The position numbers and the translations under genes were made by a program. From contig CAZHKX010000001.1 of the NCBI GenBank assembly GCA_964532805.1, positions 1 through 62,585 of the forward strand: a DNA stretch of 62,585 bases, read 5' to 3'. Positions within the stretch are counted from its first letter, which is position 1, and every line of letters starts with the position of its first letter. Shown here in pieces: positions 4,344 to 34,101 of the stretch. Source of the DNA: an uncultured Clostridia bacterium (GTDB lineage: Bacteria > Bacillota > DTU025 > MWDF01). The notes beneath the pieces were generated by a model. That model did no database searches. It saw nothing but the letters and a program-made list of their open reading frames with translations, and was not told the DNA's origin.

Positions 4344-4346
4344 CGC

Positions 4347-5435: not shown

Positions 5436-5796
5436 CGTCCCGGCCCCCCGTCTCCGCAGGAGGAAGCTTTCCCCTGCCATGCTGGGTCTCCACCGCCATG
5501 CCCTCTTTAAGCGGCGTAACGCAGGTCCTCACATTGGGTATGCCGTCTACTACCATGAAGCATGAGCTGCACTTGCCTATGGCACAGAAAAAGCCCCGCG
5601 GCCTTTTATCCACGGGGCTGTGCCTGTAAACCTTCACGCCGTTTGCGTGCAGCGCCACTGCTATGGGCTCACCCTCGAAGCCCTGCAATAAGGCTCCGTC
5701 GAACGTGAACTCCACTTTCCTTCCATGCTTGAAATCCAGTATAGGGTGTGAATCTATCAGCTCCACCGTATCCCTCCTGATCATCCGCATGCTCAT
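5428..5796 (-). CDS. [2Fe-2S]-binding small subunit (HcnA / SoxA N-terminal-like)
   Basis: FTFDGALLQGFEGEPIAVALHANGV...CAIGKCSSCFMVVDGIPNVRTC is typical of the Fer2_4-type domain. The tracked ORF's 5' extension runs into ftsH, so an internal ATG at 5796 is used. Confidence 0.7.
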   Translation of the reverse strand: MSMRMIRRDTVELIDSHPILDFKHGRKVEFTFDGALLQGFEGEPIAVALHANGVKVYRHSPVDKRPRGFFCAIGKCSSCFMVVDGIPNVRTCVTPLKEGMAVETQHGRGKLPPAETGGRDDA

Positions 5797-5860
5797 TTTT
5801 CCTATGGATGCGGGGCAAAAAGGGCCATGCCCATGGCCCGTAGCCCCTTTATGCAATGGG

Positions 5861-7789
5861 TTATCGCTCTTCCGCCGCCGGTTTGTTGAGAGGAGCCTGG
5901 ACGGGCTGCTTCTCAGCTGCCTGAGCGCCCTCCGCATCCTGCTGGGGCGCAGGTTCCGGTGTGGGAACCTGCATGGGCGGCAGCTCCTTGCCCTCAAGAA
6001 CGAGGTCAAGTTCGCTTCCCTCGAGGTTCTCGCGCTCCTTAAGAACGGCAGCGATCCTCTTGAGAAGTTCGATATTGTCGGATAGCAGCTGTTTGGCCTT
6101 CGAGTAGCACTGATCGACTATGGCCTTTACTTCCTTGTCTATCTGGGCTGCGACCTCCTCGGAGTAGTTGCGCTCGCGGGAGATGTCCCTTCCTAAAAAG
6201 ACGTTCTGGGTATCAGGCCTGCCGTATGTTATAAGGCCGAGGCTGCTCATGCCGTATTCCACGACCATCTTCCTGGCAAGGCTCGTGGCCCTTTCCAGGT
6301 CCTTGGACGCTCCCGTCGAGACGTCGTCCAGGCAGAGCTCCTCTGCGACTCGCCCGCCGAGCGACATGGTGATGTTGTTGATGATATCCTCCCTGGAGGA
6401 GTACCTGAACTTCCTCTCGTCTTCCGGTATGACGAGCGTGAAGCCGCCTGCGCTGCCCCTTCCCACTATGGACACCTTCACTACCGGGTCGGCCCCCGGA
6501 AGAAGCTTCGCCAGCAGCGCGTGCCCTGTCTCATGGTAGGCGACGAGGTCCTTCTCCTTGTCTGTGAGAAGGCGACCCTTCTTGGCGGGCCCCATGACTA
6601 TCCTTTCGATGGCCTCGTCCATGAGGTCCATCGATATCTTCTTCCTTCTATAACGCACAGTTAGAAGCGCGGCCTCGTTAAGGAGGTTCTCAAGGTCGGC
6701 CCCAGTGAAACCGGGCGTGCGCCTTGCCAGCTCCTTGAGGTTGATCTCCGAGAGCTGCTTGTTCCTCGCGTATATCTTAAGTATCTCCTCGCGCCCCTTC
6801 GCGTCCGGGACGTCGAGCGTTATCTGCCTGTCGAACCTTCCAGGCCTCAAAAGCGCAGGGTCAAGCACGTCCGGCCTGTTGGTGGCCGCGACTACTATAA
6901 CACCCGAGTTGTTCTCGAATCCGTCCATCTCGACTAGGAGCTGATTTAGCGTCTGCTCCCTCTCATCGTGCCCGCCGCCAAGGCCTGCGCCCCTCTGGCG
7001 CCCCACGGCGTCTATCTCGTCTATGAAGATGATGCAAGGTGCCGCCTTCTTGGCCTGCGTAAACATGTCGCGGACCCTGCTTGCGCCCACTCCGACGAAC
7101 ATCTCGACGAAGTCGGACCCGGATATGAAGAAGAAGGGCACGCCGGCCTCCCCGGCCAGAGCCCTAGTAACGTGCGTCTTGCCGGTGCCGGGAGGTCCCA
7201 TGAGCAGTATGCCCTTGGGTATCCTCGCGCCCATCTCGGTGAAGCGCCTGGGGTATTTCAGGTAATCTACTATCTCAGCCAGCTCCTCCATGACCTCGTC
7301 GATTCCGGCGACGTCGGCGAAGGTCACCTTGCCCCTTCCGTCGGACTGAAGGCGGGCCCTGCTCTTGCCGAACTGCATGGCGCGGTTGTTCGAGCCCTGC
7401 ATCTGGTTGAGCATGAACATGAAGAAAAGGCCCAGCGCCACTATGAAGAAGATGTTGGGCAGAAGCGTCAGAAGCCAGTCGTTTGTCTTGGGCTTCTCTG
7501 ATATGGTGAGGCCCGCAAACTTATCAGGATTGTTCTTCACATCCTCGATTAGCCCGGCGGAGTTGGTGTAGTAGAGCTCGAACTTCTTGCCGTCGGCAAG
7601 CTCGCCGCTTATTATCCCCTCCGGCAGTATCTCGAGGATCTTGACGTTGCCGGCGTTCCACTCTGTTATGAAGCCGTCCGCAGTCATCTGCTCGGCCTTG
7701 TTCTGTGAGCCAAGGAAGTTCTGTCCTATTGTAACGGCGATAAGGAATATGAGTATCCATAACGCCGCCCTTTGAAAACCACGGTTCAA
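5861..7789 (-). CDS. ftsH: ATP-dependent zinc metalloprotease FtsH
   Basis: N-terminal TM, Walker [12 protein letters not shown] second region of homology, and zinc motif HETGHAL. Confidence 0.97.
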
Positions 7790-10232: not shown

Positions 10233-11606
10233 TTATATGTTGATGGCCAGCCCGTAGGCGGCCTCTGCGGCTTCAAGCACCGACTCCGAGAGCGTCGGGT
10301 GGGCATGGATCGTATGACCGACTTCCTTAAGCGTCAGGCCGGCCGTAACGGCCAGCGCAACTTCGGCGATTATGTCCGACGCATGCGCGCCCACCACAGT
10401 TCCCCCTATTATCCTGCCGTTTCCGTCCGCGACCAGCTTGGCGAACCCCTCCGGCTCGCCCATCGCCGTAGCCTTGCCCAGGGCCGAGTAGGGGAACCTG
10501 CCTATCGTGTACTCTATGCCCGATGACTTCGCGCCGTCTTCTCCAACGCCGACCTGCGCCACCTCGGGATAGGTGAAGATGCAGTTCGGCACCGCATAAT
10601 AGTCCATCGTGCGGTTTCCGCCGGCCATGTTCGCCGCGCATACCATGCCCTGAGAGGATGCCACGTGGGCAAGCTGCATCTTGTTGTTGACGTCCCCTAT
10701 CGCCCAGATGCCCGGAACATTGGTCCTCATGGCGTTGTCTACCACGATCTCGCCGTCCTCGCCGATTTCCACCCCGGCCTCAGCCACCCCTGCCGAAGAG
10801 CCATTCGGGCTCCTTCCTATGGAGAGCAGCATCCTGTCCGCCTCGATGCGCCTTCCGTCCTCCAGGATTGCGGCGACCCTGCCTTCGAGCTTCTCCACCG
10901 ATTTGACGCCCGTTCCCGTGATGACTTCCATGCCGCGCTTCCTGAATGATGCCGCAACTACGGAGGCCGCCTCCTCATCCACCATGGGAAGAATCCTGGG
11001 CATCACGTCAACAAGGGTCACCTTGCTGCCGAAAGTGCCATAGATGCTCGCAAACTCGCAACCGACCACGCCGGCTCCGACTACCAGCAGCTCCCCGGGC
11101 ACTTCCTTCAGCGCCAGCATCTCATCGGATGTGAGAACCAAGCTTCCGTCATATCCGAACATCCTGGGCGTCACCGGTGAGGCTCCTGTCGCTATGACAA
11201 TGTTCTTTGTTTCGTACAACTGGCTGGTGCCGTCCTGTACGGTCACTTCCACTTTGCCTGGGGATGCCACCCTGGCATCGCCGTTGAGCACGGTGATCCC
11301 GTTCTTCTTCATAAGATAGCCCACTCCGGCCCTGAGCTTTGCGGTCACCCTGTCCTTCCGGGACATCGCCTTCACTATATCAAAGCTAATATTCTCGGAG
11401 TTGACCCCGTATTCGGCCCCTCTGCGTGCGCTTGCAAGAATCTCCGCGGTGTGTGAGAGGGCCTTCGTGGGGATGCATCCCCAGTTGAGGCAGATGCCGC
11501 CCAGATGCTTCCTCTCAGCAATCGCCACTTTCATCCCTAGCTGGGCCGACCTTATTGCGCAGGTATAACCTCCGGGCCCTCCGCCTATGACCAGAACGTC
11601 GAACAT
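10233..11606 (-). CDS. lpdA: Dihydrolipoyl dehydrogenase (E3 / GCS L-protein)
   Basis: VIGGGPGGY FAD fold, redox disulfide GGICLNWGCIPTK, and C-terminal HAHPTLSE interface motif. Confidence 0.93.
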   Translation of the reverse strand: MFDVLVIGGGPGGYTCAIRSAQLGMKVAIAERKHLGGICLNWGCIPTKALSHTAEILASARRGAEYGVNSENISFDIVKAMSRKDRVTAKLRAGVGYLMKKNGITVLNGDARVASPGKVEVTVQDGTSQLYETKNIVIATGASPVTPRMFGYDGSLVLTSDEMLALKEVPGELLVVGAGVVGCEFASIYGTFGSKVTLVDVMPRILPMVDEEAASVVAASFRKRGMEVITGTGVKSVEKLEGRVAAILEDGRRIEADRMLLSIGRSPNGSSAGVAEAGVEIGEDGEIVVDNAMRTNVPGIWAIGDVNNKMQLAHVASSQGMVCAANMAGGNRTMDYYAVPNCIFTYPEVAQVGVGEDGAKSSGIEYTIGRFPYSALGKATAMGEPEGFAKLVADGNGRIIGGTVVGAHASDIIAEVALAVTAGLTLKEVGHTIHAHPTLSESVLEAAEAAYGLAINI

Positions 11607-11780
11607 CGCGATACCTCCACGAGTATATTAACGACGCGGAGGGACCTACTGTTGTGCTATTCGCCGAACCCTCCGCTATGTCCTATTAGCCCAAGGAGTA
11701 TTATATAATAGTAAGCGGCAAGAACCGCACTTTATTCGTATGCACAGTTTGTACACATCACAATATCGGAGGTGTCCCGA

Positions 11781-12899
11781 TTGTCTGGATTGAAGAGGAC
11801 CCCGCTTTACGAGATGCACATCAAGTACTCAGGCATGATAGTAGACTTCGGCGGCTGGGAGCTGCCCGTAAGGTACAAGGGAAAGGGCGACCTCGAGGAG
11901 CATAGGACCGTCAGGGAGGCCGTCGGGCTTTTCGACGTGTCCCATATGGGCGAAATCAGGGTCAAGGGGCCGGCCACGCTCAAGTTCGTGGACAACCTCA
12001 TCACAAACGACGTAGCCGGCGCAGAGATGAACCAGGTGACATACGCCCAGATGTGCTACCCGGAGGGCGGCATCGTGGACGACCTTCTGGCGTACAAGCT
12101 CTCCGACGAGGAGTTCTTCCTGGTGGTCAACGCCTCCAACTCCGACAAAGATTATGAATGGATAAAGAAGCAGGCAGAAGGCTGGGACTGCACGGTAGTA
12201 AACGAATCGGCCGCATGGGCGGAGATAGCGGTGCAGGGGCCGAAGGCTCAGGAGCTGGTTCAGAGGCTCACCGATTACAACCTAGACGAGTTGAAGTTCT
12301 TCTACTGCAAGGAGAATGTAGTCATCGCAGGGGCTGAGTGCGTGATATCCCGCACGGGCTACACAGGCGAGGACGGATTCGAGATCTACATGAGGCCCGA
12401 AGATGCGGTGAACGTCTGGGAGAGCGCCATGAAGGCTGGAGATGACCTGGGTGTATCGCCGTGTGGCCTCGGCGCCAGGGACTCGCTCAGGTTCGAGGCA
12501 TGCCTGCCGCTCTACGGCCACGAGCTCTCCAAGGATATAACCCCGCTGGAGGCATCCTTAGGCTTCTTCGTGAAGCTCGACAAGCCATCCTTCATAGGCA
12601 AGGACGCGCTCGTCGCGCAGAAGCAGAAGGGCTTATCAAGGAGGCAGGTCGGCCTTGAGCTCATAGACAGGGGCATACCTAGGAACGGCTACAAGGTGCT
12701 CTCCCCCGAAGGCGCGGAGATAGGCTGGGTCACAAGCGGGCTTCCGAGCCCTACTCTTGGCAAGAACCTGGCGATGGCGCAGGTAGCCATCGACTATGCG
12801 AAAGTCGGGACCGAAATCGCAGTCCAGATAAGGGACAAGGCGATGAAGGCAGTCGTCGTGAAGACCCCGTTCTACAAGAAGGCTTACAGGAAGCCCTGA
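11781..12899 (+). CDS. gcvT: Glycine cleavage system T protein (aminomethyltransferase)
   Basis: LKRTPLYEMH N-terminus and full-length GcvT-like sequence. GGAGG at 11768-11772 favours TTG 11781 over the tracked GTG 11772. Confidence 0.95.
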   Translation: MSGLKRTPLYEMHIKYSGMIVDFGGWELPVRYKGKGDLEEHRTVREAVGLFDVSHMGEIRVKGPATLKFVDNLITNDVAGAEMNQVTYAQMCYPEGGIVDDLLAYKLSDEEFFLVVNASNSDKDYEWIKKQAEGWDCTVVNESAAWAEIAVQGPKAQELVQRLTDYNLDELKFFYCKENVVIAGAECVISRTGYTGEDGFEIYMRPEDAVNVWESAMKAGDDLGVSPCGLGARDSLRFEACLPLYGHELSKDITPLEASLGFFVKLDKPSFIGKDALVAQKQKGLSRRQVGLELIDRGIPRNGYKVLSPEGAEIGWVTSGLPSPTLGKNLAMAQVAIDYAKVGTEIAVQIRDKAMKAVVVKTPFYKKAYRKP

Positions 12900-12938: not shown

Positions 12939-13310
12939 ATGTTCAAGTACGCAGACAGCCATGAATGGGCCAAGGCAGACGGCAAGCTCGTCACAGTGGG
13001 CATAAGCGACTACGCGGCCGAGCATCTCGGCGACGTCATATTCGCAGAGCTTCCCGCGGTGGGCTCAGCAGTGAAGAAGGGCGCAAAGCTTGTGGACCTG
13101 GAATCTGTCAAGGCGGTCGCAGAGGTATTCTCGCCGGTCAGCGGCAAGGTCGTGGAAGTGAACACCGCCGTAGGAGACAACGCCGGCATGATCAACGAAT
13201 CCCCCCAGGGCGACGGCTGGATAGTCAAGATCGAGGCGGCGGACACCGCCGAGCTGGACACGCTGATGGACGAGGCTGCTTACCGCAAGTTCCTCGAGTC
13301 GCAGCATTAA
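12939..13310 (+). CDS. gcvH: Glycine cleavage system H protein
   Basis: 123 aa with lipoyl-lysine motif LESVKAVAEVFSPVSG. Confidence 0.95.
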   Translation: MFKYADSHEWAKADGKLVTVGISDYAAEHLGDVIFAELPAVGSAVKKGAKLVDLESVKAVAEVFSPVSGKVVEVNTAVGDNAGMINESPQGDGWIVKIEAADTAELDTLMDEAAYRKFLESQH

Positions 13311-13328: not shown

Positions 13329-14681
13329 ATGGGAGCTCCTCGCCATTACCTTCCCGCCACCGAGCAGGAAGTGCGCGAGATGCTCGATGCGTGCGGCGCA
13401 AAGAGCATCGATGACCTTTTCTCGGACATCCCGGAGGGCTTAAGGTTCACCGGGAAGCTAGATATCCCCGAGTCCCTGTCGGAGCCTGAGCTGGCAGCAG
13501 AGCTGGACAAGATGGCGGCAATGAACAAGGCTGGCGCGGTATGCTTCGCCGGCGGCGGCATATACGACCACTTCGTCCCCTCAGTCGTGGACCACATGCT
13601 AAGGCGCGGCGAGTTCTACACCGCCTACACCCCATACCAGCCCGAGGTGAGCCAGGGGACTCTTACCGCCATCTTCCAGTACCAGACCATGATCTGCGAG
13701 CTGACCGGCATGGACCAGGCCAATGCCTCCATGTACGATGCCGGGACCGCTGCGGCGGAAGCATCCATCATGTGCGCGAGCCAGTCCGGAAGGAAGAAGG
13801 TCGTGGTGACCCGGGCCACCAACCCGCGCTACCGCGATGTGATAAGGACCTATGCGGAGCCCAGGGAGTACGAGGTTGTGGAAGTCCCCTTCGACCCCAA
13901 GACGGGCCAGACCGATGTTGCCGAGCTTAAAAGGGCCGCAGCAGGGGCGGCCTGCGTGATCGCCCAGAATCCGAACTACCTTGGCGTCATAGAGGACATG
14001 CATGGCCTTTCCGAGGCCGCGCACTCTGACGGCGGCTTCTTCGTCGCAGTAGTGAACCCCGTAAGCCTAGCAGTGCTTGAGGCGCCCAGGGCATACGGAG
14101 CCGACATAGCGGTTGGCGAGGGCCAGTCGATGGGAAACGGCATGAACTTCGGCGGGCCGCTTCTTGGCTTCATGGCCGCGACCCAGCAGCTTATAAGGCG
14201 CATGCCCGGCAGGCTCGTGGGCCAGACGCTGGACAACCGCGGCCAGAGAGCCTTCGTGCTCACGCTGCAGACCAGGGAGCAGCACATAAGGCGCGAGAAC
14301 GCCACCAGCAACATCTGCTCCAACGAGGCGCTGTGCGCCCTTGCTGCGACCATACACTTAAGCCTCATGGGTCCCAAGGGGCTCAGGAAGGCGGCCGAGC
14401 TTTCGATGTGGAAGGCCCATTACCTGGCAAAGACGATATCCGAGAAGACGCCCTACAGGCTGAAGTTCGCCGGCCCCTTCTTCAACGAGTTCGCCATCGA
14501 GGGCGAGGGCTGCGCGGCGGAGCTCAGAGACAGGCTGCTTGACGAGGGGATACTCGGAGGAATACCTCTTTCGACCGCATATCCGGAGTTTAAGCACAAC
14601 TCCCTCTGGGCGGTGACAGAGCTTCGCACCAGGGAGCAGATGGACAGGCTCGTATCCCTACTGGAGGTGAGCGCAAGATGA
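13329..14681 (+). CDS. gcvPA: Glycine dehydrogenase (decarboxylating) subunit 1
   Basis: Typical split P-protein N-terminal subunit ([13 protein letters not shown]). Stop overlaps the gcvPB start (ATGA). Confidence 0.95.
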
Positions 14682-16147
14682 AGAGGCTCATGCCCTTGAT
14701 TTTCGAGATGAGCAGGCCCGGCAGGATGGGCGTAAGCCTTCCCGCATCGGATGTGCCGGAACTTGCCGTAGAATCGATGATTCCCGACACCATGCTCAGA
14801 AAGCAGGCCCCGGGGCTTCCCGAAGTCTCCGAGGTTGACGTGGTGAGGCACTTCGTGAACCTCTCCAACCTTAACCACGGCGTCGACACGGGGTTCTACC
14901 CTCTGGGCAGCTGCACCATGAAGTACAACCCCAAGATAAACGAGGACGCCGCAAGGCTTCCCGGCTTCGCCAAGCTGCATCCTGACATGCCGGAGCGCGG
15001 GGCGCAGGGTGCGCTCAAGGTCATCCACGACCTCGACATGTGGCTCTCCGAGATATGCGGGATGGACAGGTTCACCCTGCAGCCGGTGGCGGGCGCCCAT
15101 GGCGAGCTGACCGGGCTGTTCATCATCCGCGCCTATCATTTCAGCAGGATGGACTGCAAGAGGGACAAGATACTCGCACCGGACTCCTCGCACGGCACCA
15201 ACCCCGCAAGCGCGGCTGCTGCAGGGATGACGGTCATACAGGTGGCATCCGACGCCAGGGGCAACGTGGACATTGAGGATCTCAAGGCGAAAGTCGGCCC
15301 GGACACCGCGGCGCTCATGCTCACCAACCCCAATACATTGGGGCTTTTCGACGAGCACATCTGCGAGATCACCGAGATAGTCCATAACGCCGGCGGACTT
15401 GTTTACTACGACGGAGCGAACGCAAACGCCATAATGGGCAAATCCAGGCCCGGCGACATGGGCTTCGACGTCGTCCACATCAACCTGCACAAGACGTTCT
15501 CCACCCCGCACGGCGGAGGAGGACCGGGCTCCGGCCCTGTGGGCGTTAAGAAGTTCCTGGAGCCGTTCCTACCTAAGCCCCTGGTGGAATGCGGCGGCGG
15601 CAAGTACAGGTGGGACTTCGACAGGCCGGATTCAATCGGCCACGTGCATTCGTTCAACGGCAACTTCGGAGTGCTCCTGAGGACATGGGCCTACATTAGG
15701 ACAATGGGGCCGGACGGCCTTAAAGCGGCCTCAGAGCTGGCAGTGCTGAACGCAAACTACCTGATGCACGAGCTCAAAGGCGACTTCCAGCTCAACTTCG
15801 ACAGGGCCTGCAAACACGAGTTCGTGCTCTCTGGGGCCAAGCAGAAGAAGGAGAGCGGCGTAAGGACGCTCGATATGGCCAAGAGGCTCCTGGACTACGG
15901 CTACCATGCTCCTACCGTATACTTCCCCCTCATAGTCGAGGAGGCGATAATGATCGAGCCCACGGAGACAGAAAGCAAGGAGACCCTGGACTCGTTCATA
16001 GAGGCGATGAAGGAGATAGCGAGAGAAGCAAGGGAGAACCCCGAGAACCTGCACACGGCTCCGCACAACACGCCTGTCGGCAGGCTCGACGAGACGCTTG
16101 CTGCAAGAAAGCCGATACTGAGGTGGACGAAAGCGGACAATGAATAG
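14678..16147 (+). CDS. gcvPB: Glycine dehydrogenase (decarboxylating) subunit 2
   Basis: PLP-lysine region [16 protein letters not shown], ~489 aa. Confidence 0.95.
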
Positions 16148-17012
16148 GAAGGTCATCTTCGCCCGCCCTACTGCCACGACGGCGATCTCAGTCACCGGAG
16201 AGGCATGCGGGCTCAACTGCGCCCACTGCGGCGCTAGATATCTAAAGGGGATGAGGCCGCCGGATGAAGCGCTGGCGGCCTTTTCCGACCCGTCGGCAAG
16301 AAGCGTGCTCATATCCGGAGGAAGCGACGCTTATGGCCATGTCCCGATCGAGGGCTGGCCGGAGCAGGTCAGAGGAGACCATCCGCATCTTTCCATAAAC
16401 TGCCATACAGGGATAATCGACGAGGCTGAAGCCGGATATCTCAAAGGCAAGGTGGATGTGATCTCCTTCGACTATGTCAGCGACCTGAGGATAACGGAGG
16501 GCATATACGGCTCGAAGTCGGCACCTGAGGACTATGTGCGAAGCTTCATCCTCGCATCAAACGCCGTACCGACCGTCCCTCACATAACTGTCGGCCTGCT
16601 GGGACCCGAGACTGAGCCGGCCTTCTCCATAAGCGTGCTGGATGAGATCAGGGCGTTGGCTGATGCGGGAAGGATACCGGAGCCCCCCGGCATCGTCGTT
16701 ATCGTCTTCAGGCCCACAAGGGGCACCAGGATGGAAGGCGGCGCGCCTCCTGATGAGGGAGCCGTAGCCGAGGCCATAAGGCATGCAAAGCTCATCTTCC
16801 CAACCTCCCCCGTCTCGCTAGGCTGCATGAGGCCCGCCGGAGGCTACCGCTCAAGGCTCGATGTGCTCGCCCTTCAAGCAGGCGCCGATATCATCGTCAT
16901 GCCGGCTAAGGAGGCAGTGCTTCTTGCGGAGTCGGAAGGATTAGAGATGCTTTCGGCGGATGAATGCTGCGTCTTTCCATCCCTAGGCAAGGGGGTGCGC
17001 AATGATGGATGA
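16140..17012 (+). CDS. Radical SAM protein, candidate LipS-type lipoyl synthase subunit
   Basis: C23-x3-C27-x2-C30 (CGLNCAHC) plus further Cys in INCH, LGCM and ECC. 8-nt overlap with gcvPB. Confidence 0.7.
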
Positions 17013-18003
17013 GGTCAGCAACGCCCTCAAGTTCAGGCCTTCCTCCGGCACAATGGCCGCCCTCGGCCTGCTGGACATAAAGGCAGACGCCCTGCCAACT
17101 ACGGCCTACATAATGCTGGGAGAGAAGTGCGTGCGAGACTGCGCCTTCTGTGCCCAGGCAAGAAACAGCGGCGCCGGAGCCGGCAGGCTCTCCAGGGTCA
17201 CATGGCCTGAGGCGGACGAAGACGGCCTTCTGAATGCATTAAGCGCTGCAACAAGGGCCGGAACCATTAGGCGCGTCTGCATACAGACCGTGGGGGGGAG
17301 ATCCTCACTGAAGGCTGTTGTGGATGCTGTAGGCAGACTGCGGTCGGCCTCAGCCCCCGGAATTCCGATATCAGTATCGTTCAGCGCCACGGCGGGGCTT
17401 TCGGACATCGGAGGCATCATCGAGGCAGGCGCCGACAAGGTGGCCCTATCGATTGACGCCTGCAATCCCGAGCTGCATCTGAAGCTTAAGAAATCCCGGA
17501 TGGAAGCATCGCTGAAGCTCATATCGGAGGCGGCGGCGAGGTATCCGGGGAGGATCTCGACCCATTTGATATCGGGCATGGGCGAAAGCGAGCGCGACCT
17601 CCTGCTCCTTGCCGCACGGATGATGGAGTTGGGAGTAGGCTTGGGGCTGTTCGCGTTCACCCCCCTTCGCGGCACGGAGATGGAGGGCCACCCTAAGCCC
17701 GACATCCGCTCATACAGGCGGGTTCAGCTGGCCTTCTGGCTTATTAAGCACCATGGCCTTACGGCAGACGGGATGCGCTTCGACGATGCCGGAAGGCTTA
17801 CCGGGTTGTCCCTGCAGGGCCGTGACATATCCTCCATGGCGGCAAGCGGCTCTCCTTTCCTCACCTCCGGCTGCAGTTCCTGCAACAGGCCCTATTACAA
17901 CGAAAGCCCCGGCACGGAGCTTTACAACTATCCTAGGGAGCTAACCTGCGAGCAGGCCGCAAGGGCGCTTTCGATGGCCCTTGACGGGCTGATCCTCGAC
18001 TGA
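17002..18003 (+). CDS. Radical SAM protein, candidate LipS-type lipoyl synthase subunit (second, non-identical)
   Basis: C43-x3-C47-x2-C50 (CVRDCAFC) plus Cys in VCIQ, DACN and GCSSC. 11-nt overlap with the preceding radical SAM gene. Confidence 0.7.
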   Translation: MMDEVSNALKFRPSSGTMAALGLLDIKADALPTTAYIMLGEKCVRDCAFCAQARNSGAGAGRLSRVTWPEADEDGLLNALSAATRAGTIRRVCIQTVGGRSSLKAVVDAVGRLRSASAPGIPISVSFSATAGLSDIGGIIEAGADKVALSIDACNPELHLKLKKSRMEASLKLISEAAARYPGRISTHLISGMGESERDLLLLAARMMELGVGLGLFAFTPLRGTEMEGHPKPDIRSYRRVQLAFWLIKHHGLTADGMRFDDAGRLTGLSLQGRDISSMAASGSPFLTSGCSSCNRPYYNESPGTELYNYPRELTCEQAARALSMALDGLILD

Positions 18004-18018
18004 CTGGAGGCGATCATC

Positions 18019-18813
18019 ATGGCACCATGGCGTCTAATCATCTCCCCGGCGTCGGAAGGGGCATGGAACATGGCTGTAGACGAGGCTGTGCTGGAAGCCG
18101 TCATTGCCGGCTCATCACCCCCAACCCTGAGGTTCTATACATGGGATCCCCCCTGCCTCTCCCTCGGCTACAACCAGAGGGCAGTTGAATCCTGCGACAT
18201 GGGGGAAGTACTCAAAAGGGGCTATACCATGGTAAGAAGGAGGACGGGCGGGCGCGCGGTGCTGCATGATGACGAGCTCACCTACAGCGTGATAGCAGAT
18301 TCGCTGCTCTTCGGCGGGGGTGCTGTACTGGATGTGTACATGATGATAAGTAGCGCCCTGGCGGACGGGCTAAAAGCCTTCGGCATAACGGCGGACCTCG
18401 TCCCCGCGTACAGCGACAGGGGCAAGGAGAAGACCGCAGCCTGCTTCGACGTGCCGTCCAGCTTCGAGGTCGCCTGGAAGGGCCGGAAGATCATAGGAAG
18501 CGCGCAGTTCAGGTCGGGCAGGCACTTCCTGCAGCATGGCTCCATACTGATGTCGGCAGACGTAGGCGCCCTGCTTAAGGTGTGCGCACTACCAAGCTCC
18601 ATGAAGGAGAGGCTTGAAGGCGGGATTGCGACAGTCGACGAGGCGCTCGGCAGGAATGCCGGAGCCTATGAGCTGACAGGGCCGATCTCCGAGGAGTTCG
18701 GAAGGCTGGTGGGCTCCCCGCTTCTTGAGGCAGGCCTCAGCGACGCCGAGGTGAAGAGGGCATCGGAGCTTCTGGGCAAGTACAGGTCGGATGAGTGGAA
18801 TTTCCTGAAATAG
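18019..18813 (+). CDS. Lipoate-protein ligase / octanoyltransferase catalytic domain (LplA/LipM-type)
   Basis: BPL_LplA_LipB fold: LRFYTWDPPCLSLGYNQ, RRTGGRAVLHD and the lysine motif GRKIIGSAQ. GGAGG RBS upstream. No LplA C-terminal accessory domain. Confidence 0.85.
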   Translation: MAPWRLIISPASEGAWNMAVDEAVLEAVIAGSSPPTLRFYTWDPPCLSLGYNQRAVESCDMGEVLKRGYTMVRRRTGGRAVLHDDELTYSVIADSLLFGGGAVLDVYMMISSALADGLKAFGITADLVPAYSDRGKEKTAACFDVPSSFEVAWKGRKIIGSAQFRSGRHFLQHGSILMSADVGALLKVCALPSSMKERLEGGIATVDEALGRNAGAYELTGPISEEFGRLVGSPLLEAGLSDAEVKRASELLGKYRSDEWNFLK

Positions 18814-18827: not shown

Positions 18828-19733
18828 ATGCTCAGGATTTCAAGGGAGAGCTCTGTCGGCGCATTCGCCCCGAAGATGAGCCCTGTGGCCTTCGCAAAGC
18901 CAGGCGAGCTCATCCTCTTCGAGACACATGACTGCTGGCACGGCCAGATAAGCTCCGAAGGGCAGGACATCGGGAAGGTGGACTTCACATGCCTCAACCC
19001 GGCCACAGGGCCAGTCTGCATAGAGGGCGCGGAGCCTGGCGACGTGCTCTCCGTCTCGGTCCTGTCAATAGATGTGGCATCCTGCGGGGTCATCAGCGTC
19101 ATCCCCGGAGGAGGCCTTCTGGGCGGTGAAGTAAAGAAATCGTTTACCCGAATTATTCCCGTATCTTCAGTCATGGCGGGCTTCGCAGGAAGGCCTCTTC
19201 CGATAAAGCCCATGATAGGCGTGATCGGAGTCGCCACCTCCCAGAAGCAGGGCGCAGTATCGACTGGCATCCCCGGAAGGCACGGCGGCAACATGGACAC
19301 GAAGGACATATGCGAGGGAGCCACGCTGTTTCTTCCTATAAGCCAGGAGGGCGCGATGCTCGCGATGGGAGACGTCCATGCCCTCATGGCGGATGGCGAG
19401 GCCTGCGTGACAGGCCTTGAGATAGCAGCCGAGGTGCTCGTGCGAATCGGCCTTATTAAACAGACGCGGATCAGCTGGCCCGCCATAAGAGGCGGCAGCG
19501 AGCTTATGATAGTCGCCTCGGGGGCGACCCTCGAGGAGGCAGCCAGGGCTGCGACCGATTCAGCCGTGAGATACATCTCCGCCGCGTGCGGCATCAAGTG
19601 GGAGGAATCCTACATGATGGCAAGCCTTGCAGTCGATCTGCGAATCAGCCAATGCGTGGACCCGCAGATGACAGTAAGGGCCGTCATCCCGCTAGACAGG
19701 CTCGGGATCACGGGAGAACTGATGGACTTCTGA
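18828..19733 (+). CDS. Acetamidase/formamidase family amidohydrolase
   Basis: FmdA/AmdA-like sequence (ETHDCWHGQI, GNMDTKDI, GDVHALMADGE). GGGGGAGG RBS before ATG 18828, so the tracked 18795 start is trimmed. Confidence 0.8.
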   Translation: MLRISRESSVGAFAPKMSPVAFAKPGELILFETHDCWHGQISSEGQDIGKVDFTCLNPATGPVCIEGAEPGDVLSVSVLSIDVASCGVISVIPGGGLLGGEVKKSFTRIIPVSSVMAGFAGRPLPIKPMIGVIGVATSQKQGAVSTGIPGRHGGNMDTKDICEGATLFLPISQEGAMLAMGDVHALMADGEACVTGLEIAAEVLVRIGLIKQTRISWPAIRGGSELMIVASGATLEEAARAATDSAVRYISAACGIKWEESYMMASLAVDLRISQCVDPQMTVRAVIPLDRLGITGELMDF

Positions 19734-19759
19734 CAGGTTCATTGACAGGTGGTGGTCAC

Positions 19760-20668
19760 TTGCAGGTTATTAGGCTTGACGTTTCGCGACTAGGCGCTTT
19801 TCTGGAATTCTGCGCCTCCAACAGGGACAAGGTTGACGGCTCCTTCCTTGCGGATGAGGACCTGTCCGGCTTCACGGCAGGCGATGCGGACCCGACATTC
19901 CTGCTTACAGGAAGCGGCGGATGCATAACCGGCGTCGCCTCCCTCATGCTCACCAGCAGGGCGATCGCCGCAAGGAGGGCGCGTTTCAGGATCCTATGGT
20001 GCATGGATGGGGACAAGCAGTGCTATGCCTCCCTGCTCAATGCCATGTCCGATGCTGTCAAAGGAATCAATTCGGCCTACCTCTTCGCGCCACTAGAGGA
20101 CGCTCACTTCAACGGTATACTGGACGAGCTCGGCTTCATCGTGGAAAGGAACGTGTACTCGCTAAAAAGGGGCACGGCCCTGCCGCGTGCCGAAGCTCAG
20201 CTTCCGAATGGGCTCACAATAAGGCCCTTTGTGAAGGGGCAGGACGAGGTCGAATGGTGTAATGTCCGGAATTCCGCCTTCGCTACAGTGAAGGGAAACG
20301 AGGCGCCCCAGTCCGCAGAAGAAGTCCTGCGCATGGCAAGCTCGCCGGACAGCATCGAGGGGGCCATGCTAATGATTGAGGAGGGCGGGCGCACAATCGC
20401 CGTAGCCAGAGGCTCAGCGGATGAGATGGACGGCAGGCCCTCGATGAACATAGGGCCTATTGCAGTGCTTCCGGAGAAGCAGGGCATGGGATTGGGACGG
20501 GCTCTTCTCAGAAGCCTTGTGATGATGGCCTATGATATGGGTCTAGATATGACTACGCTAAGCGTGAACGCGGACAATGAGGCGGCACTTAAGCTCTATA
20601 TTTCAGAGGGCTTCACCAAGATGCGATCCTTTGCCTGCAGGTCGGTGAGGCCCTCTGCCTTCCTATAG
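19760..20668 (+). CDS. GNAT family N-acetyltransferase (about 300 aa, possibly two GNAT-like halves)
   Basis: C-terminal acetyl-CoA motif IAVLPEKQGMGLGRALL...NEAALKLYISEGF. The tracked 5' end overlaps the formamidase, so TTG 19760 after its stop is proposed. Confidence 0.65.
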   Translation: MQVIRLDVSRLGAFLEFCASNRDKVDGSFLADEDLSGFTAGDADPTFLLTGSGGCITGVASLMLTSRAIAARRARFRILWCMDGDKQCYASLLNAMSDAVKGINSAYLFAPLEDAHFNGILDELGFIVERNVYSLKRGTALPRAEAQLPNGLTIRPFVKGQDEVEWCNVRNSAFATVKGNEAPQSAEEVLRMASSPDSIEGAMLMIEEGGRTIAVARGSADEMDGRPSMNIGPIAVLPEKQGMGLGRALLRSLVMMAYDMGLDMTTLSVNADNEAALKLYISEGFTKMRSFACRSVRPSAFL

Positions 20669-22551: not shown

Positions 22552-23280
22552 TCAGCTTATGAACATCACGTCGCATATCTCGAGAAATCCAAGCTTCCTC
22601 ACCAATGGCAGGGACATCGAATTGTCCTTCGAGATGTGCACTATGGGCAGCTCGCCTATCTGCCTCATCTTCCTTATCAGCGCAAGTGTCATGTCGTAAG
22701 CCATCCCCTGCCTCCTATATTCCGGAAGCACAGTCAGCATGCCCATGGCCATGTCGTCGTGGGTCATCGCCCACCCGGCAAGCGCACCTTCCCTAAAGAC
22801 GCCCACAGCAGGGCCCTCGGCGAGCCTTTCCCTTATGTATGCGATGTCGACCAGCTCAGCCCTAGCGTAGTTCATGTACACCGTCTCGGCGTGCTCAACG
22901 CCGATTTCGACGACATCGCCCGACGGCTCGCCTACCTGTACACCCTCAGGCAGGTACAGCATCGCTGCATGAAGGACGCTTTTGGGAGTTCTGTCGTCCA
23001 GTGCGGCTTTTATGCTCCAATCGAAGGCAGGCTCTATCGCAAGGTCCGTGATTCCTTCGAAGACCCGGCAGACTTCACGCGCTTCGCACTCATCCCTTGA
23101 GTACAGGGCTCCGAACCGCTCCTCACCGAAGCCGAAGACGGCGGCGCAGGATCCCCCGCACAGCGCCGCCCTCTTGACCTCATATTTCCCAAGGTACTTC
23201 AAGAACCCATAGTTCACTATGGGCTCCCTCTTCAGCAGCTCCTGCAGCATGCCGCGGGTTTTACCGCCTACTTCCTGCAT
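22552..23280 (-). CDS. GNAT family N-acetyltransferase
   Basis: [21 protein letters not shown]...[10 protein letters not shown] acetyl-CoA binding pattern. The opposite-strand ORF 22459-23100 is Arg/His/Pro-rich and judged a shadow. Confidence 0.7.
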
Positions 23281-24134
23281 TCCTGTATGGCCTTTGCGGC
23301 CTTAAGAGTGTTGCTCATGAGCATGGTTATCGTCATAGGTCCAACGCCGCCCGGGACCGGTGTGATCCATCCTGCGACTTCGACCGCCTCGTCGAAGTCC
23401 ACGTCCCCGACGAGCTTCTTGGAGCCTTCGACCTTGTTAGTGCCGACATCTATGACTACCGCGCCCGGCTTTATCCAGTCGCCCTTTATAAGCTTGGCCT
23501 TGCCTACTGCCGCAACCAGCACATCGGCCCTGCGGCATGCCTCGGCGAGGTCCTTCGTCCTTGAGTGGCATATCGTGACCGTGGCGTGCTTCTCCAGAAG
23601 AAGCAGTGATACCGGCTTTCCTACGATGTTGCTCCTGCCGACTACTACTGCCTGCTTGCCGGTCAGATCCTGCCCGCTCCTTCTGATGAGCTCCATAATC
23701 CCCGCGGGAGTGCAGGACTTTAAGCAGGGCCTTCCTATCATCAGGTTGCCCACGCTGACGGGGTGGAACCCGTCGACATCTTTCATCGGGTCTATTGTGC
23801 TGATAACTGCGTCGGCGTCGATGTGCTTGGGCAGGGGAAGCTGCACTAGTATGCCGTCGATCTTCGGGTCGCAGTTGAGCTTGTTTACTAGCTCGACGAG
23901 CTCGCACTGCGTCGTAGTGTCCGGCAGGGAGTGCTCTTCGGAGTACATCCCCAGCTCTGCGCAGCCCTTCTTCTTGTTGTTGACATAAGTCCTGCTGGCA
24001 GGGTCTTCCCCTACGATTACTACCGCAAGCCCCGGCACTCTTCCGTAGGTTTCCGCGAAGCTTGACACCTCGCACTTAAGGCCTTCCCTGATTTCAGCGG
24101 CAACTGCCTTTCCGTCGATTATGGTAGCTGACAT
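23268..24134 (-). CDS. folD: Bifunctional methylene-THF dehydrogenase / methenyl-THF cyclohydrolase
   Basis: [11 protein letters not shown] start, [22 protein letters not shown] and [11 protein letters not shown] motifs. GGGAGG RBS before ATG 24134. Confidence 0.93.
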
Positions 24135-24138
24135 CCCT

Positions 24139-25569
24139 TTACCTCCCTTTGCCAGTGATCTCCCCGGCAAGCTGCTTGAACCGCCTGCCGCGCTCCTCGA
24201 AGTTGTTGAACATGTCGTAGCTTGCGCAAGCAGGCGACATAAGCACTACGTCCCCTGCTTCAGCCGCCCTTGATGCCGCCAGCACGGCTTCGTCGAAAGC
24301 CGCCGCCCTTTCCATCCGCGGAAGCGGCCTTCCTGTCCTTGCCGCGGCTAAGGCGAAAGCCTCCTCGATCTTTGCGGCGGTGACCCCCAGCGTGACCAGG
24401 TGTTTCACCCTGCCCAAGGCAAGCTCGGCCATCCCGTCGAACGGAAGATGCTTGTCATATCCGCCCGCGATGAGCACTATGGGCCTTTCAAAGGCCTTCA
24501 GGGCAGCTATGGTCCTTGCCGGGCTGGTGGCTATGGAATCGTTCACGTATAGAATTCCGTCCTTCTCGCCCGCAAGCTCCAGCCTATGCTCGACGCCGGT
24601 GAAGCCGAGCACCGCCGAGCGCATGTCGGAGCCTTCGGCGCCGGCTGCGGCAGATATCGCCATCGCTGCCAGGACGTTCAGGATGTTATGCATCCCGGGT
24701 ATCCTTACGTCCTTCACTGACATGACGGCCTCATCCGCGCGCCCGGGCATCCTGAGCACCAGGTCCTCTCCCCTCATGAAAGCCCCGGCGCTTACCTCTT
24801 CCTCTGCTGAGAACCACAGTATGCGGCCTTTGCAGGCGGAGGCCAGAGACGCGGCGGCCGGATCATCTGCACCCAGAACCGCAGTCGAATCCTTCCCCTG
24901 GAAGGCCAGTATGTTCGCCTTTGATGAGATGTAGTCCTCCATGCTCGGGTGCACGTCAAGATGGTTGGGCGTGATGTTGAGCACAGCGGAGATGTCGGGG
25001 CTGGTTCTTATGAACTTCAGCTGGAAGCTGGACATCTCCAGCACCGCGAAATCCTGCGGGCCGCCTTGGAGTATCTCCTCGACCAGCGGCCTTCCTATGT
25101 TTCCTCCGACCATGACGGTCCCCCTGCCGCGGCGCCTTGATGCCTCCTCAAGCATGAGGCCCACCAGGGTAGTCGTCGTGGTCTTCCCGGAGCTTCCCGT
25201 TATGCCGATCACCGGGCATTCAGCCAGCTCAATCGTCAGCTCTATCTCGTAGCCGAACTTGACCCCTGCCGACTTCGCGGCGAGGAAATCCTGCCTGTCG
25301 GGGTTTATGCCCGGTGACGGGAAGAAGTAATCGAAGCAGCTGATACCCTCGAAAGCATCCGTCCCCGCCCGAAGCTCGTATACCGAGCCTCTCAGCTGGT
25401 CCAGCTGAACTGCCAGCTCAGATTGGCTCTTCTTATCGAAGACGGTGACTCTGGCTCCGGAGCCGGAGAGCAGCCTCACCAAGGGCACGCTTGTGCGGCC
25501 GAGGCCCGCGACTGCGACCCTCTTGCCCTCGAAAGCCCTAAGTATCCTTCTTTGCCTTTCAGTAGCCAT
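24139..25569 (-). CDS. murD: UDP-N-acetylmuramoyl-L-alanine--D-glutamate ligase
   Basis: N-terminal Rossmann-like [11 protein letters not shown]-loop [12 protein letters not shown], Mur ligase middle and C-terminal domains, C-terminal [17 protein letters not shown]. Confidence 0.85.
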
Positions 25570-25595
25570 ATGATCCTCCGACAGCTCCCCTGCTT

Positions 25596-26738
25596 CTATA
25601 GCCCTTTGCCGGCGGCGAACAGCCTGACTGCGTTCTCTGCCGCATCAGCGAGGAGCGCCTCCGCATCCTTAAGGGAAGACTCCAGCGTCATCGGCCCGTT
25701 TGGTATCGCAAACAGAGCCTCGACACCCAGCTCGTACAGGTCCCTCGCCCCTGCGGCTATGCTGCCGCTGATAAGTATAACAGGAATCCTGTGCACCTTG
25801 GCCGCCTTGGCGACGCCCATGGGCGTTTTTCCGAACTTGGTCTGGAAGTCCGTCCTGCCTTCCCCGCTTATTACGAGGTCCGCGCCTTTGCATTTCGCAG
25901 TAAGCCCTGTCGCCTCGACGACTATTTCCACGCCCCTGCGCAAGCTCGCATTGCAGAAGGTCATAAGGCCGGCCCCGAGCCCTCCTGCGGCACCTGCGCC
26001 AGGCGCTTCGGATACATCCTTGCCGAGTTGCCTTTTCACAACCAGGGCATAATTGGCGAGCGCTGCGTCCAGGTACTCCACATCGGCAGGCGTCGCGCCC
26101 TTCTGGGGCCCATAGACTGCGGATGCCCCCCTCGGCCCCGTAAGCGGGTTGTCGACATCGCAGGCCACTATGAACTCCACTCCGGCGAGCCTTTCATCAA
26201 GCCCGCTTACATCTATTGAGGCCAAGTCGTGAAGGGCTGCGCCGCCCGGCTCACCCAGGGCATTGCCGTCGGATCCAATGAACTTCACGCCGAGGGCCTC
26301 AGCCATGCCCCTGCCCCCGTCATTGGTGGCGGAGCCCCCGATGCCCATGATCACCCTTCTGGCTCCCATCGCTATGGCCTCGAGTATCAGCTCGCCCGTG
26401 CCTATGGTGCTCGTGAGCCTGGGGTTCCTCTCGCCCTGCCTTAGAAGCGGCAGGCCTGAGGCCGCAGCCATCTCGATGACCGCGGTGCTGCCGTCTCCCA
26501 TCATGCCGAAGAACGACTTCACCCTCCTGCCCAGCGGGTCATGGACGGTCTTCTCTATAACCTTCCCGCCCGAGACGTCTACAAGCGACTGCACGGTACC
26601 CTCCCCGCCGTCTGCCATGGGGACTTTGACCACCTCTGCCTCAGGAAACCTCCTTCTTATGCCCTTCTCCAGTGCATCGCAAACCTCGACCGCCGTAAGG
26701 CAGCCCTTGAAAGAGTCGGGGGCAAGCACGATCTTCAT
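25596..26738 (-). CDS. glxK: Glycerate kinase
   Basis: MKIVLAPDSFKG...ADGGEGT N-terminus and C-terminal GEGRTDFQT motif typical of the GlxK/GarK family. Confidence 0.9.
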   Translation of the reverse strand: MKIVLAPDSFKGCLTAVEVCDALEKGIRRRFPEAEVVKVPMADGGEGTVQSLVDVSGGKVIEKTVHDPLGRRVKSFFGMMGDGSTAVIEMAAASGLPLLRQGERNPRLTSTIGTGELILEAIAMGARRVIMGIGGSATNDGGRGMAEALGVKFIGSDGNALGEPGGAALHDLASIDVSGLDERLAGVEFIVACDVDNPLTGPRGASAVYGPQKGATPADVEYLDAALANYALVVKRQLGKDVSEAPGAGAAGGLGAGLMTFCNASLRRGVEIVVEATGLTAKCKGADLVISGEGRTDFQTKFGKTPMGVAKAAKVHRIPVILISGSIAAGARDLYELGVEALFAIPNGPMTLESSLKDAEALLADAAENAVRLFAAGKGL

Positions 26739-28036
26739 TGCGGCAATCCTCCTTCGTCTGCTTTTATGTACATCCAGGCGAGCATAAGAAGCTTCTGCCT
26801 GTCATTGAGCTCCGGCGAATCCAGCACGTCGAGGTAAATCCTGTTCATGACGGCCTTGACCTTGGGCCCCTTCTCCCCGTTGAGAAGGCTCACGACATCC
26901 GAGCCTCTTATCTTAAGCTCCTCCAGTGCGAGCGGGGGCTTTGCGGCAAGCACGGCCTCCACCCGGGCCGTCTCTGCCATCCAGTCGGAGCCGGGGCGGA
27001 ATATGCTGTCGTACCAGCTTCTTAGGGCGAGCCCCTCATGGGCGGATTCCCTTCCCAGAAGGGCGGCCCACCTTCTTACGGACGGGCCGTCCGATAACCT
27101 GTACCCTTCATAAAGGCCCTCTGCCAGCCTCACCGCATGGAGCCTCGCCGCCTTAGGCAGCTTCAGCGCATCTAACCTCCTGGCCAAAGCCGATTGGACC
27201 CTCTGCGGCCCGGCGGGCTCAGATGAGGCGATGAAAGCCGCAAGCCTTATCAGAGCATCTTCGGGAAGGCCCCCGATGTTCTCCGCCGCGGTAAGCATGA
27301 GGCCCTTATCGAGCCCCGGGAAGATGGCCGAAGCAAGGCCCAGCTCCACCATCATCGCCAGCGCCTTGCAGGCGCATGGCCCCCTTAAGATCCTTCCCAG
27401 CTCCATTGCCTTGCGCTCGCCCGAGATGAGCGCGATGCCACCGCTTTCGGATCTTATGGCGCCTTTCACGCTTTCATCTATCTCGAAGCAGAGCGAAGAG
27501 CAGAACCTTAGCGCCCTTAGCATCCTCAATGCATCCTCGGAGAACCTCTCCCTGGCATCCCCTACCGCCCTTATCAGGCCAGCATCTATATCACTTCTTC
27601 CGCCGAAGGGGTCGATGAGCCTATCCTCGAAGGGGTCCCACGCCATCGCGTTCATGGTGAAGTCGCGGCGCGAGAGGTCCTGTTCCACGTCCTCGACGTA
27701 GCCGACGCTGTCGGGCCTCCGCAGGTCGCTGTAGGCGCCCTCTGTCCTGAAGGTGGTGATATCCACCGTCCCCCCGTCGAATATGGCCATCACGGAGCCG
27801 TGCCTTTCGCCCAGCGGGGCATTATGGGGGAACAGTTGCTTGACCCTCTCCGGACGGGCGGATGTGGCGATGTCCCAGTCGTCGGTGGAGCCCTTCAAGA
27901 TGAGATCCCTTATGGCGCCTCCTACTATGTAAGCCTTGTTTCCGTCGCCTCTCAGGCGAAGCAGGGCCTCCCTGACACGCTCCGGCAGCTCAGAGGGTTT
28001 TAACAGCTCATCTTGCGAAATATCCTGGACTTGCAT
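26735..28036 (-). CDS. cca: CCA-adding tRNA nucleotidyltransferase / poly(A) polymerase family
   Basis: AYIVGGAIRDLIL...DWDIAT head-domain motifs and RRDFTMNAMA. Confidence 0.8.
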   Translation of the reverse strand: MQVQDISQDELLKPSELPERVREALLRLRGDGNKAYIVGGAIRDLILKGSTDDWDIATSARPERVKQLFPHNAPLGERHGSVMAIFDGGTVDITTFRTEGAYSDLRRPDSVGYVEDVEQDLSRRDFTMNAMAWDPFEDRLIDPFGGRSDIDAGLIRAVGDARERFSEDALRMLRALRFCSSLCFEIDESVKGAIRSESGGIALISGERKAMELGRILRGPCACKALAMMVELGLASAIFPGLDKGLMLTAAENIGGLPEDALIRLAAFIASSEPAGPQRVQSALARRLDALKLPKAARLHAVRLAEGLYEGYRLSDGPSVRRWAALLGRESAHEGLALRSWYDSIFRPGSDWMAETARVEAVLAAKPPLALEELKIRGSDVVSLLNGEKGPKVKAVMNRIYLDVLDSPELNDRQKLLMLAWMYIKADEGGLPQ

Positions 28037-34097: not shown

Positions 34098-34101
34098 GCC
34101 T

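Follow-up and report, generated by a model that had tools for sequence, protein, structure and literature searches.

A predicted LipS1/LipS2-type lipoyl synthase pair in the glycine-cleavage operon of an uncultured Clostridia bacterium

What are two dissimilar radical S-adenosylmethionine (radical-SAM) proteins doing at the end of a glycine-cleavage operon? The question is raised by a 62,585-nt stretch of DNA from an uncultured Clostridia bacterium (contig CAZHKX010000001.1, positions 1 to 62,585; hereafter the window), in which the genes for the glycine-cleavage apoproteins, gcvT, gcvH, gcvPA and gcvPB, run directly into two radical-SAM open reading frames (ORF1 and ORF2) and a third frame, ORF3, with a catalytic domain of the LplA/LipM type. 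The initial annotation, made from the sequence alone, had taken the pair for a two-subunit, non-LipA lipoyl synthase of the LipS1/LipS2 type and ORF3 for its ligase. Its gene layout could be reproduced in every detail: proteins of 290, 333 and 264 aa, overlaps of 8 and 11 nt and a gap of 15 nt. Family membership, as argued below, supports the identification of ORF1 as LipS1 and of ORF2 as LipS2 of a predicted bacterial two-protein lipoyl synthase, with a third protein that is more likely an octanoyltransferase than a ligase.

Identity of the two radical-SAM proteins

The proteins were assigned to families with the profiles of Pfam and of NCBIfam release 20, which has dedicated equivalog models for both LipS1 and LipS2. 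Pfam sees a generic Radical_SAM domain in ORF2 and gives no match in ORF1. With NCBIfam, the sole match of ORF1 is the LipS1 model NF053742 (205 bits, E=1.4e-60), aligned over positions 1-268 of its 268, and ORF2 matches positions 2-292 of the 292 in the LipS2 model NF053743 with 316.5 bits (E=1.7e-94), which passes the cutoff of 270; the second-best match of ORF2, a hypothetical radical-SAM family, scores 41 bits. These full-length matches, far beyond chance, are the only strong ones for either protein, and the initial reading of the pair is borne out by them. It must be counted against the assignment that ORF1 falls 25 bits short of the NF053742 cutoff of 230, indicating that its clade is divergent; this cutoff is an operational threshold and corresponds to no biochemical feature. 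The LipS1 of the sister locus, L002, scores 217 bits, and those of nine relatives from other lineages score between 248 and 347.

The obvious reference for such a pair is Thermococcus kodakarensis, whose LipS1 (TK2109) and LipS2 (TK2248) were reportedly characterised by Jin in 2020 as a two-protein lipoyl synthase. In a reciprocal blastp comparison with these two sequences, which were machine-read from the supplementary information of PMC9585515 and may contain small optical character recognition errors, ORF1 matched TK2109 with 131 bits (32% identity over 276 aa) and TK2248 with 24 bits, whereas ORF2 matched TK2248 with 172 bits (33% identity over 320 aa) and TK2109 with 28 bits. This comparison, which the initial annotation had proposed, settles which protein is which: ORF1 is the LipS1 and ORF2 the LipS2. 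By analogy with the archaeal enzymes, LipS2 is predicted to add the C8 sulfur first and LipS1 the C6 sulfur.

The cluster ligands tell a similar story. The homologs that we aligned, 65 of LipS1 and 80 of LipS2, were drawn from 80 species-level genome loci. The radical-SAM CX3CX2C motif is found, as originally described, at C23/C27/C30 in ORF1, which map to C27/C31/C34 of the T. kodakarensis protein, and at C43/C47/C50 in ORF2; it is invariant in 65 of the 65 and 80 of the 80 homologs. Each protein does have the four or more further cysteines that had been proposed for an auxiliary cluster, namely C88 (in INCH), C229 (LGCM) and C276 with C277 (ECC) in ORF1, and C93 (VCIQ), C154 (DACN), C291 with C294 (GCSSC) and C316 in ORF2, but just three of them in each are conserved. 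By mutagenesis, the auxiliary-cluster ligands of the T. kodakarensis proteins are C230, C276, C277 and probably H159 in LipS1, and C85, C276 and C279 in LipS2 (PMC9585515). Global alignment places the first set on C229, C276, C277 and H148 of ORF1 and the second on C93, C291 and C294 of ORF2, all of them invariant in their respective homologs, which gives a C...CC plus His pattern for LipS1 and a C...CxxC pattern for LipS2. LipS1 further has an invariant H29 and H89, and LipS2 an invariant H188. The cysteines of INCH and DACN are ruled out as cluster ligands, both being unconserved (it is the neighbour of C88, H89, that is invariant), and C316 is also unconserved across the 80 homologs.

Could either protein belong to another radical-SAM family? 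Neither is a LipA: the CX4CX5C and RSSY hallmarks are missing from both, as had been noticed at the outset, and the LipA models TIGR00510 (cutoff 310) and PRK05481 (cutoff 203) give 16.6 and 21.4 bits. Nor is either a biotin synthase, since the BioB model TIGR00433 gives 29 bits with ORF2 (cutoff 225) and no match with ORF1. The comparisons with LipA, BioB, HydE and PylB that had been called for thus leave both proteins in the LipS1 and LipS2 families. AlphaFold2 models built on the family alignments have a predicted local distance difference test score of 95 and a predicted template modelling score of 0.92 for LipS1, and of 90.8 and 0.90 for LipS2. The closest solved folds of both models are biotin synthases (1R30, 8VDW, 8VCW), HydE and PylB, with BioB ranking best for LipS1, and BioB and HydE for LipS2; LipA appears at rank 50 for LipS1 and behind BioB and HydE for LipS2. 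Similarly, the family profiles of both proteins reach only BioB among the PDB sequences. A single-sequence search of the PDB, which holds no LipS structure, produced no match for LipS2 and nothing but noise for LipS1.

These nearest folds, along with the names "biotin synthase" and "radical SAM protein" under which homologs stand in the public records, might be taken to mean that the two proteins are no lipoyl synthase at all, but a BioB-like or other sulfur-insertion or maturase pair that lies beside the gcv genes by chance. Such a coincidence is hardly conceivable in view of the BioB score given above and an equally poor one for HmdB (24 bits, cutoff 321), the specific and reciprocal matches to TK2109 and TK2248, the invariance of ligand sets that are specific to LipS proteins, and the association of the pair, persistent across phyla, with GcvH and a lipoyl-transferase domain by linkage or fusion (see below).

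The third gene and the proposed assembly of lipoyl-GcvH

Besides a lipoyl synthase, GcvH needs an enzyme to octanoylate it, and ORF3 is the only candidate linked to the operon. The protein consists of one PF21948/PF03099 catalytic domain, its homologs are all 264-313 aa long, and it carries the GRKIIGSAQ motif, with its lysine at K157, that had been pointed out initially. This lysine and C142 lie 15 residues apart (Cys142-x14-Lys157), are invariant in alignments of 51 and 27 homologs, and constitute the predicted catalytic pair. At the position of C142 the LplA ligase of Thermoplasma acidophilum has a serine, and its GGG aligns with the GGR of ORF3 (R79), which is invariant in the ORF3 family. 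The LplA_large and TIGR00545 ligase models yield 80 and 59 bits, far from their cutoffs of 480 and 280. No PF10437 or LplB was found among the approximately 68 ORFs scanned in the window, and lpl is immediately succeeded by lpd in 28 related loci, with no LplB between them. Among the single-domain relatives, LipM has an active-site cysteine on a loop other than that of LipB (PMC7253636), and C150 of LipL forms an acyl-enzyme intermediate. We thus consider ORF3 to be probably an octanoyltransferase of the LipM type; the initial annotation was right about the LplA/LipM-type domain, but "ligase" is the less probable name for it.

There are, to be sure, points that weigh against calling ORF3 a LipM. 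The equivalence of its Cys-Lys pair to that of LipM, reportedly C150/K165 with the same spacing (Christensen & Cronan 2010), is presumptive. The ORF3 family profile matches T. acidophilum LplA, the catalytic half of a bipartite LplA-LplB ligase, with 133 bits (E=9e-38) as against 27 for BH3822/2P5I and 15 for 2P0L, and Cronan has warned that calling function within PF03099 from sequence alone is perilous (PMC7253636). Accordingly, ORF3 could be an ATP-dependent lipoate/octanoate:protein ligase, either LplA alone or together with an LplB encoded elsewhere, that salvages octanoate or lipoate in free form, which is the mode of the sLpl(AB)-LipS1/S2 systems, instead of using octanoyl-ACP (ACP, acyl carrier protein). 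Not only is its best solved relative an LplA, but its best NCBIfam matches are the LplA_large and LplAB models, and an Lpl occurs somewhere in the genome of 64 of the 106 LipS1/S2-positive Firmicutes, according to the phylum-level counts of PMC10332631. The closeness to T. acidophilum LplA agrees with the tree of the same study, in which many LipM and bipartite LplA sequences are intermixed in one subclade, many of the bacterial LipMs having come from archaeal LplA after the loss of LplB (PMC10332631). The ligase would have to be reconciled with the very low LplA_large score, with the absence of LplB/PF10437 from the window and from the lpl-lpd interval of related loci, and with the replacement of the ligase serine by an invariant Cys142 and of its GGG loop by GGR. 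Moreover, T. acidophilum LplA by itself cannot adenylate lipoate. On balance we think a ligase unlikely.

Even less can be said for ORF3 as a LipL-like amidotransferase that would supply E2 subunits with octanoyl or lipoyl groups taken from GcvH and leave the initial loading of GcvH to another enzyme. Although it has the single-domain architecture and conserved cysteine of LipL, with the acyl-enzyme precedent of LipL C150 and a gcvH in the same operon, the NCBIfam LipL equivalog model gives only 22 bits (cutoff 450), the LipL-like structures 2P5I and 2P0L are distant, no E2 gene was found in the window, and GcvH would be left with no octanoylating enzyme linked to the operon. We hold this to be very improbable.

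With ORF3 read as a LipM-type enzyme, the following scheme may be proposed. ORF3 would place an octanoyl group on GcvH, most likely from octanoyl-ACP via a thioester on Cys142 and without ATP. The predicted acceptor is Lys58, within an ESVKA motif that matches ESV(K)AASD, the peptide substrate used in vitro by Neti et al. (PMC9585515). LipS2 would then cleave SAM at the [4Fe-4S] cluster held by C43/C47/C50, whereupon the 5'-deoxyadenosyl radical would take a hydrogen from C8, and a sulfur donated by the auxiliary [4Fe-4S] cluster on C93/C291/C294 would give 8-mercaptooctanoyl-GcvH. LipS1, with its C23/C27/C30 cluster and an auxiliary cluster on C229/C276/C277/H148, would insert the sulfur at C6, and the resulting lipoyl-GcvH would shuttle among the P, T and L proteins. 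For the LipS2 and LipS1 steps, order and chemistry are those that we infer from the T. kodakarensis enzymes; the evidence from the locus itself consists of family membership, ligand conservation and genetic coupling.

The operon, its neighbourhood and its relatives

The genes from gcvT through ORF3 are co-directional and either overlap or are separated by gaps of at most ~40 nt (Table 1). The products of gcvT, gcvH, gcvPA, gcvPB and lpd all score far above the curated cutoffs. A consensus scan detected no terminator-like site on the + strand between 11772 and 20668; other promoter and terminator consensus scans were uninformative, with counts no higher than the shuffle expectation. The true start of gcvT is possibly an in-frame TTG at 11781, which has a GGAGG before it. 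The gcvT leader measures 165 nt (11607-11771), and no glycine riboswitch or other Rfam family was found ahead of gcvT, whether the whole window was scanned with gathering thresholds or 11550-11850 with the limit E<=1. Bacillus gcvT operons do carry a glycine riboswitch.

Table 1. Genes of the glycine-cleavage and lipoyl-assembly locus and its flanks. Coordinates are positions in the 62,585-nt window and come from an ORF map in which the gene junction sequences were read.
Gene and product	Coordinates	Strand	Profile matches and remarks
lpd, dihydrolipoyl dehydrogenase (L protein)	10233..11606	-	TIGR01350 534 bits (cutoff 409); divergent from gcvT
gcvT, aminomethyltransferase (T protein)	11772..12899	+	TIGR00528 429 bits
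gcvH, H protein, lipoyl carrier	12939..13310	+	PF01597 140 bits, TIGR00527 134 bits
gcvPA, glycine dehydrogenase subunit 1	13329..14681	+	NF001696 614 bits
gcvPB, glycine dehydrogenase subunit 2	14678..16147	+	NF003346 779 bits; stop overlaps lipS1 start
lipS1 (ORF1), 290 aa	16140..17012	+	NF053742 205 bits; 8-nt overlap with gcvPB, start within ATGAATAG
lipS2 (ORF2), 333 aa	17002..18003	+	NF053743 316.5 bits; 11-nt overlap with ORF1
ORF3, predicted LipM-like octanoyltransferase, 264 aa	18019..18813	+	PF03099/PF21948 single domain, PF21948 109 bits; 15-nt gap from ORF2 stop, GGAGG 8 nt ahead of start
FmdA/AmdA-family amidase-like gene	18828..19733	+	PF03069 115 bits; GGGGAGG ribosome-binding site, ATG 14 nt past ORF3 stop
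GNAT acetyltransferase-like gene	19586..20668	+	PF00583; last co-directional gene
folD, murD, glycerate kinase and CCA-adding enzyme genes, in a row	23268-28036	-	same four genes downstream in locus L003

The layout makes it highly probable that gcvT-gcvH-gcvPA-gcvPB-lipS1-lipS2-lipM-like is one co-directional, translationally coupled operon, with lpd divergent upstream, which makes the glycine-cleavage proteins and also matures the cofactor on GcvH. The tight gene coupling and the conserved synteny described below fit the original idea that the apoproteins are encoded together with a lipoyl-assembly line of their own. Two things detract from it: no LipT-like electron donor was identified beside the lipS genes, and genes for LplB, LipA or a complete ligase could lie beyond the 62.6-kb window (within which no lipA, lipB, lipL, lplB, E2 or ACP gene was found). 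The transcript may extend beyond ORF3 to the FmdA-like and GNAT-like genes. Co-transcription with the gcv-lipS operon is probable for the FmdA-like gene, and the GNAT-like gene probably has its true start downstream of 19733. Among the 80 loci compared, both genes recur in L001 and L002 alone, the two nearest relatives.

These loci come from a scan of one genome per species, in which relatives of LipS2 turned up in at least 532 species, mostly Bacillota and Chloroflexota; all locus counts refer to the best 80 species-level loci of these 532 or more. The LipS1 family is small; its representative clusters number 765 at E<=1e-3 and fall to 95 at E<=1e-30. Among the matches listed, the nearest loci have 72% and 65% identity in LipS2. 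The lipS1 gene adjoins lipS2 in 68 of the 80 loci, gcv genes lie within 10 kb in 56, and an Lpl-type gene is present in 50. The exact order gcvT-H-PA-PB-lipS1-lipS2-lpl recurs in 29, usually with lpd next, including those of Sporomusa, Desulfosporosinus, Desulfotruncus and a metagenome-assembled genome (MAG) of Symbiobacterium thermophilum; in most other Bacillota loci as well, lpd is downstream of lpl on the same strand. The Chloroflexota have their own arrangement, lipS1-lipS2-gcvT-H-PA, in 11 loci, continuing through gcvPB in 10. In Clostridioides difficile (chromosomal locus L051, 2210-11813), lipS1-lipS2-lpl comes behind gcvH and the RACo corrinoid activator, directly past the CdhD, AcsE-like and ACS genes; there it is the Wood-Ljungdahl cluster, and not gcvTPAPB, that ends in the module.

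Gene fusions provide an independent functional tie among the three proteins. LipS1-LipS2 fusions of ~545-680 aa are represented by P0254 and P0264, and probably by P0364, P0367, P0391 and P0435. LipS2-Lpl fusions of 596 and 598 aa occur in L067 (9324-11120) and L076 (7418-9208), one of them in a Symbiobacterium thermophilum MAG; in the L076 fusion, NCBIfam locates LipS2 at residues 9-299 and an LplA-like domain at 326-573.

A different pattern is seen in three Bacillota MAG loci, L003 (9794-9980), L004 (9882-9980) and L008 (1-479), where gcvPB-lipS2-lpl occurs with no lipS1 within ±10 kb; eight Chloroflexota loci also have a LipS2 without an adjacent LipS1. That the three Bacillota loci keep lipS2 and lpl without lipS1 might point to either another partner for LipS2 or a single protein that performs both insertions. 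This would be one half of a scenario in which the gcv operon is the organism's only route of lipoylation and is non-canonical twice over, the other half being that ORF3 employs an acyl donor other than octanoyl-ACP or ligates free octanoate without LplB. We regard this combination as improbable, and prefer the operon with a LipM-type ORF3 and a LipS2-LipS1 pair as set out above. Locus L003 is otherwise syntenic with the window, having the same folD, murD, glycerate kinase and CCA-adding enzyme genes downstream; FolD and glycerate kinase suit a neighbourhood concerned with the metabolism of glycine, serine and C1 units.

On the other side of the operon, five minus-strand redox genes (2403-6009) encode a 2Fe-2S Fer2_4 protein, a Pyr_redox_2 flavoprotein, a 4Fe-4S ferredoxin, a SO_alpha_A3/BFD-like small protein and a DAO-family FAD oxidoreductase. 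The cluster is reminiscent of heteromeric sarcosine oxidase, archaeal proline dehydrogenase or the HcnABC-type amino-acid dehydrogenases, and may have to do with the breakdown of glycine or amino acids. Farther away, three minus-strand tRNA genes (32282-32353, 36268-36339, 38579-38652) have among them a short resolvase-domain ORF (34363-34794, minus strand), in a stretch of lower GC content (0.51 at 36-38 kb), and this region (32282-38652) may be a mobile-element remnant. A dense signalling block (37211-54998) contains a GGDEF protein, two large PAS-HD(-GYP-like) proteins (of 840 aa and of 1204 aa), a response regulator-HD protein, a solute-binding protein (SBP) and a pair of hybrid sensor kinases, very large at 1481 and 977 aa, that carry SBP_bac_3 domains in the periplasm. 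Finally, two adjacent paralogous S8 subtilase genes, for proteins of 629 and 625 aa, lie on the minus strand at 55048-58872.

Annotation and comparison with known systems

The value of the locus is mainly in annotation and metabolic reconstruction. Deposited homologs bear generic or wrong names, and the initial expectation that pipelines would label the pair only as radical-SAM proteins holds for those records; it also holds for the LipS1 of the window, whose score below the cutoff means that PGAP-type pipelines would still call it a "radical SAM protein". It does not hold for LipS2, which the current NCBIfam would name, so automatic annotation would miss half of the synthase here. Where LipS1 and LipS2 go unrecognised, this organism and its relatives are scored as having no lipoyl synthase and may be mistaken for lipoate auxotrophs or for bearers of a non-functional glycine-cleavage/glycine-synthase system. 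The remedy would be either to bring sequences of this clade into the seed alignment or to lower the LipS1 cutoff. For the rest, the locus adds one more case of cofactor-maturation genes that are translationally coupled to apoprotein genes, and leaves the knowledge of the pathway as it was.

How does the window compare with the systems already known? The T. kodakarensis LipS1/LipS2 likewise comprise two BioB-like radical-SAM proteins with a CX3CX2C motif and an auxiliary cluster; their ligand patterns do not differ from those seen here, and identity is 32-33% over the full length. Unlike the archaeal genes, which appear unlinked to judge from their locus numbers, the pair described here is bacterial, adjacent, overlapping and located inside a gcvTHPAPB operon; it is accompanied by a LipM-like protein of one domain, whereas T. 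kodakarensis has a split LplA/LplB ligase, and its LipS1 is divergent, as the NCBIfam score testifies. BioB (1R30, 8VDW) is both the closest solved fold and the closest PDB sequence relative of the two LipS proteins, and in BioB-like fashion each of them would insert one sulfur, the terminal carbon coming first (PMC9585515). The differences from BioB lie in the auxiliary ligand sets, in model scores far under the cutoff, and in the substrate, a protein-bound octanoyl-lysine. With the LipM-GcvH-LipA(-LipL) relay of Bacillus subtilis the window is predicted to share a logic, that of a GcvH-specific octanoyltransferase followed by sulfur insertion on octanoyl-GcvH. Here, however, two BioB-like proteins would act at C8 and then C6, where the single LipA acts at C6 and then C8, and no LipL is linked.

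Among bacteria, the sLpl(AB)-LipS1/S2 systems of sulfur oxidisers such as Thioalkalivibrio and Hyphomicrobium (Cao 2018, PMC6067878; PMC10332631) also combine a LipS pair with a neighbouring PF03099 enzyme and a dedicated GcvH-like carrier. Their carrier is the LbpA of sHdr, their ligase has two domains and depends on ATP, and lipT is usual; the window, in contrast, combines a genuine GcvH with a one-domain Cys-Lys enzyme, and neither lipT nor sHdr genes were seen in it. Bacterial LipS1/LipS2 have been found to cluster with another radical-SAM protein, an H protein and a gene of the biotin/lipoate ligase family (Neti 2022, PMC9585515). Furthermore, the LipS pathway has been demonstrated in bacteria and combinations of LipS1/S2 with LipM have been noted in Firmicutes and Chloroflexota (Tanabe 2023, PMC10332631, main text and S4 Table); by the phylum-level counts of that study, 83 of 106 Firmicutes species with LipS1 and LipS2 are LipM-positive.

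It is to this Firmicutes/Chloroflexota class, with the gcvTHPAPB-lipS1-lipS2-lpl(-lpd) operon of Sporomusa, Desulfosporosinus, Symbiobacterium and others, that the window belongs, its gene content being identical. It differs from the class in having lpd divergent upstream and not downstream, in the appended FmdA-like and GNAT genes (shared by L001 and L002 alone), and in a LipS1 more divergent than those of the cultured representatives (248-347 bits). Both the module and its gcv linkage have thus been published before and occur widely among anaerobic Bacillota and Chloroflexota, and the arrangement is not new. Given the published linkage of LipS1/S2 with GcvH and a ligase or LipM, the window represents a known system in an uncultured lineage of the Bacillota.

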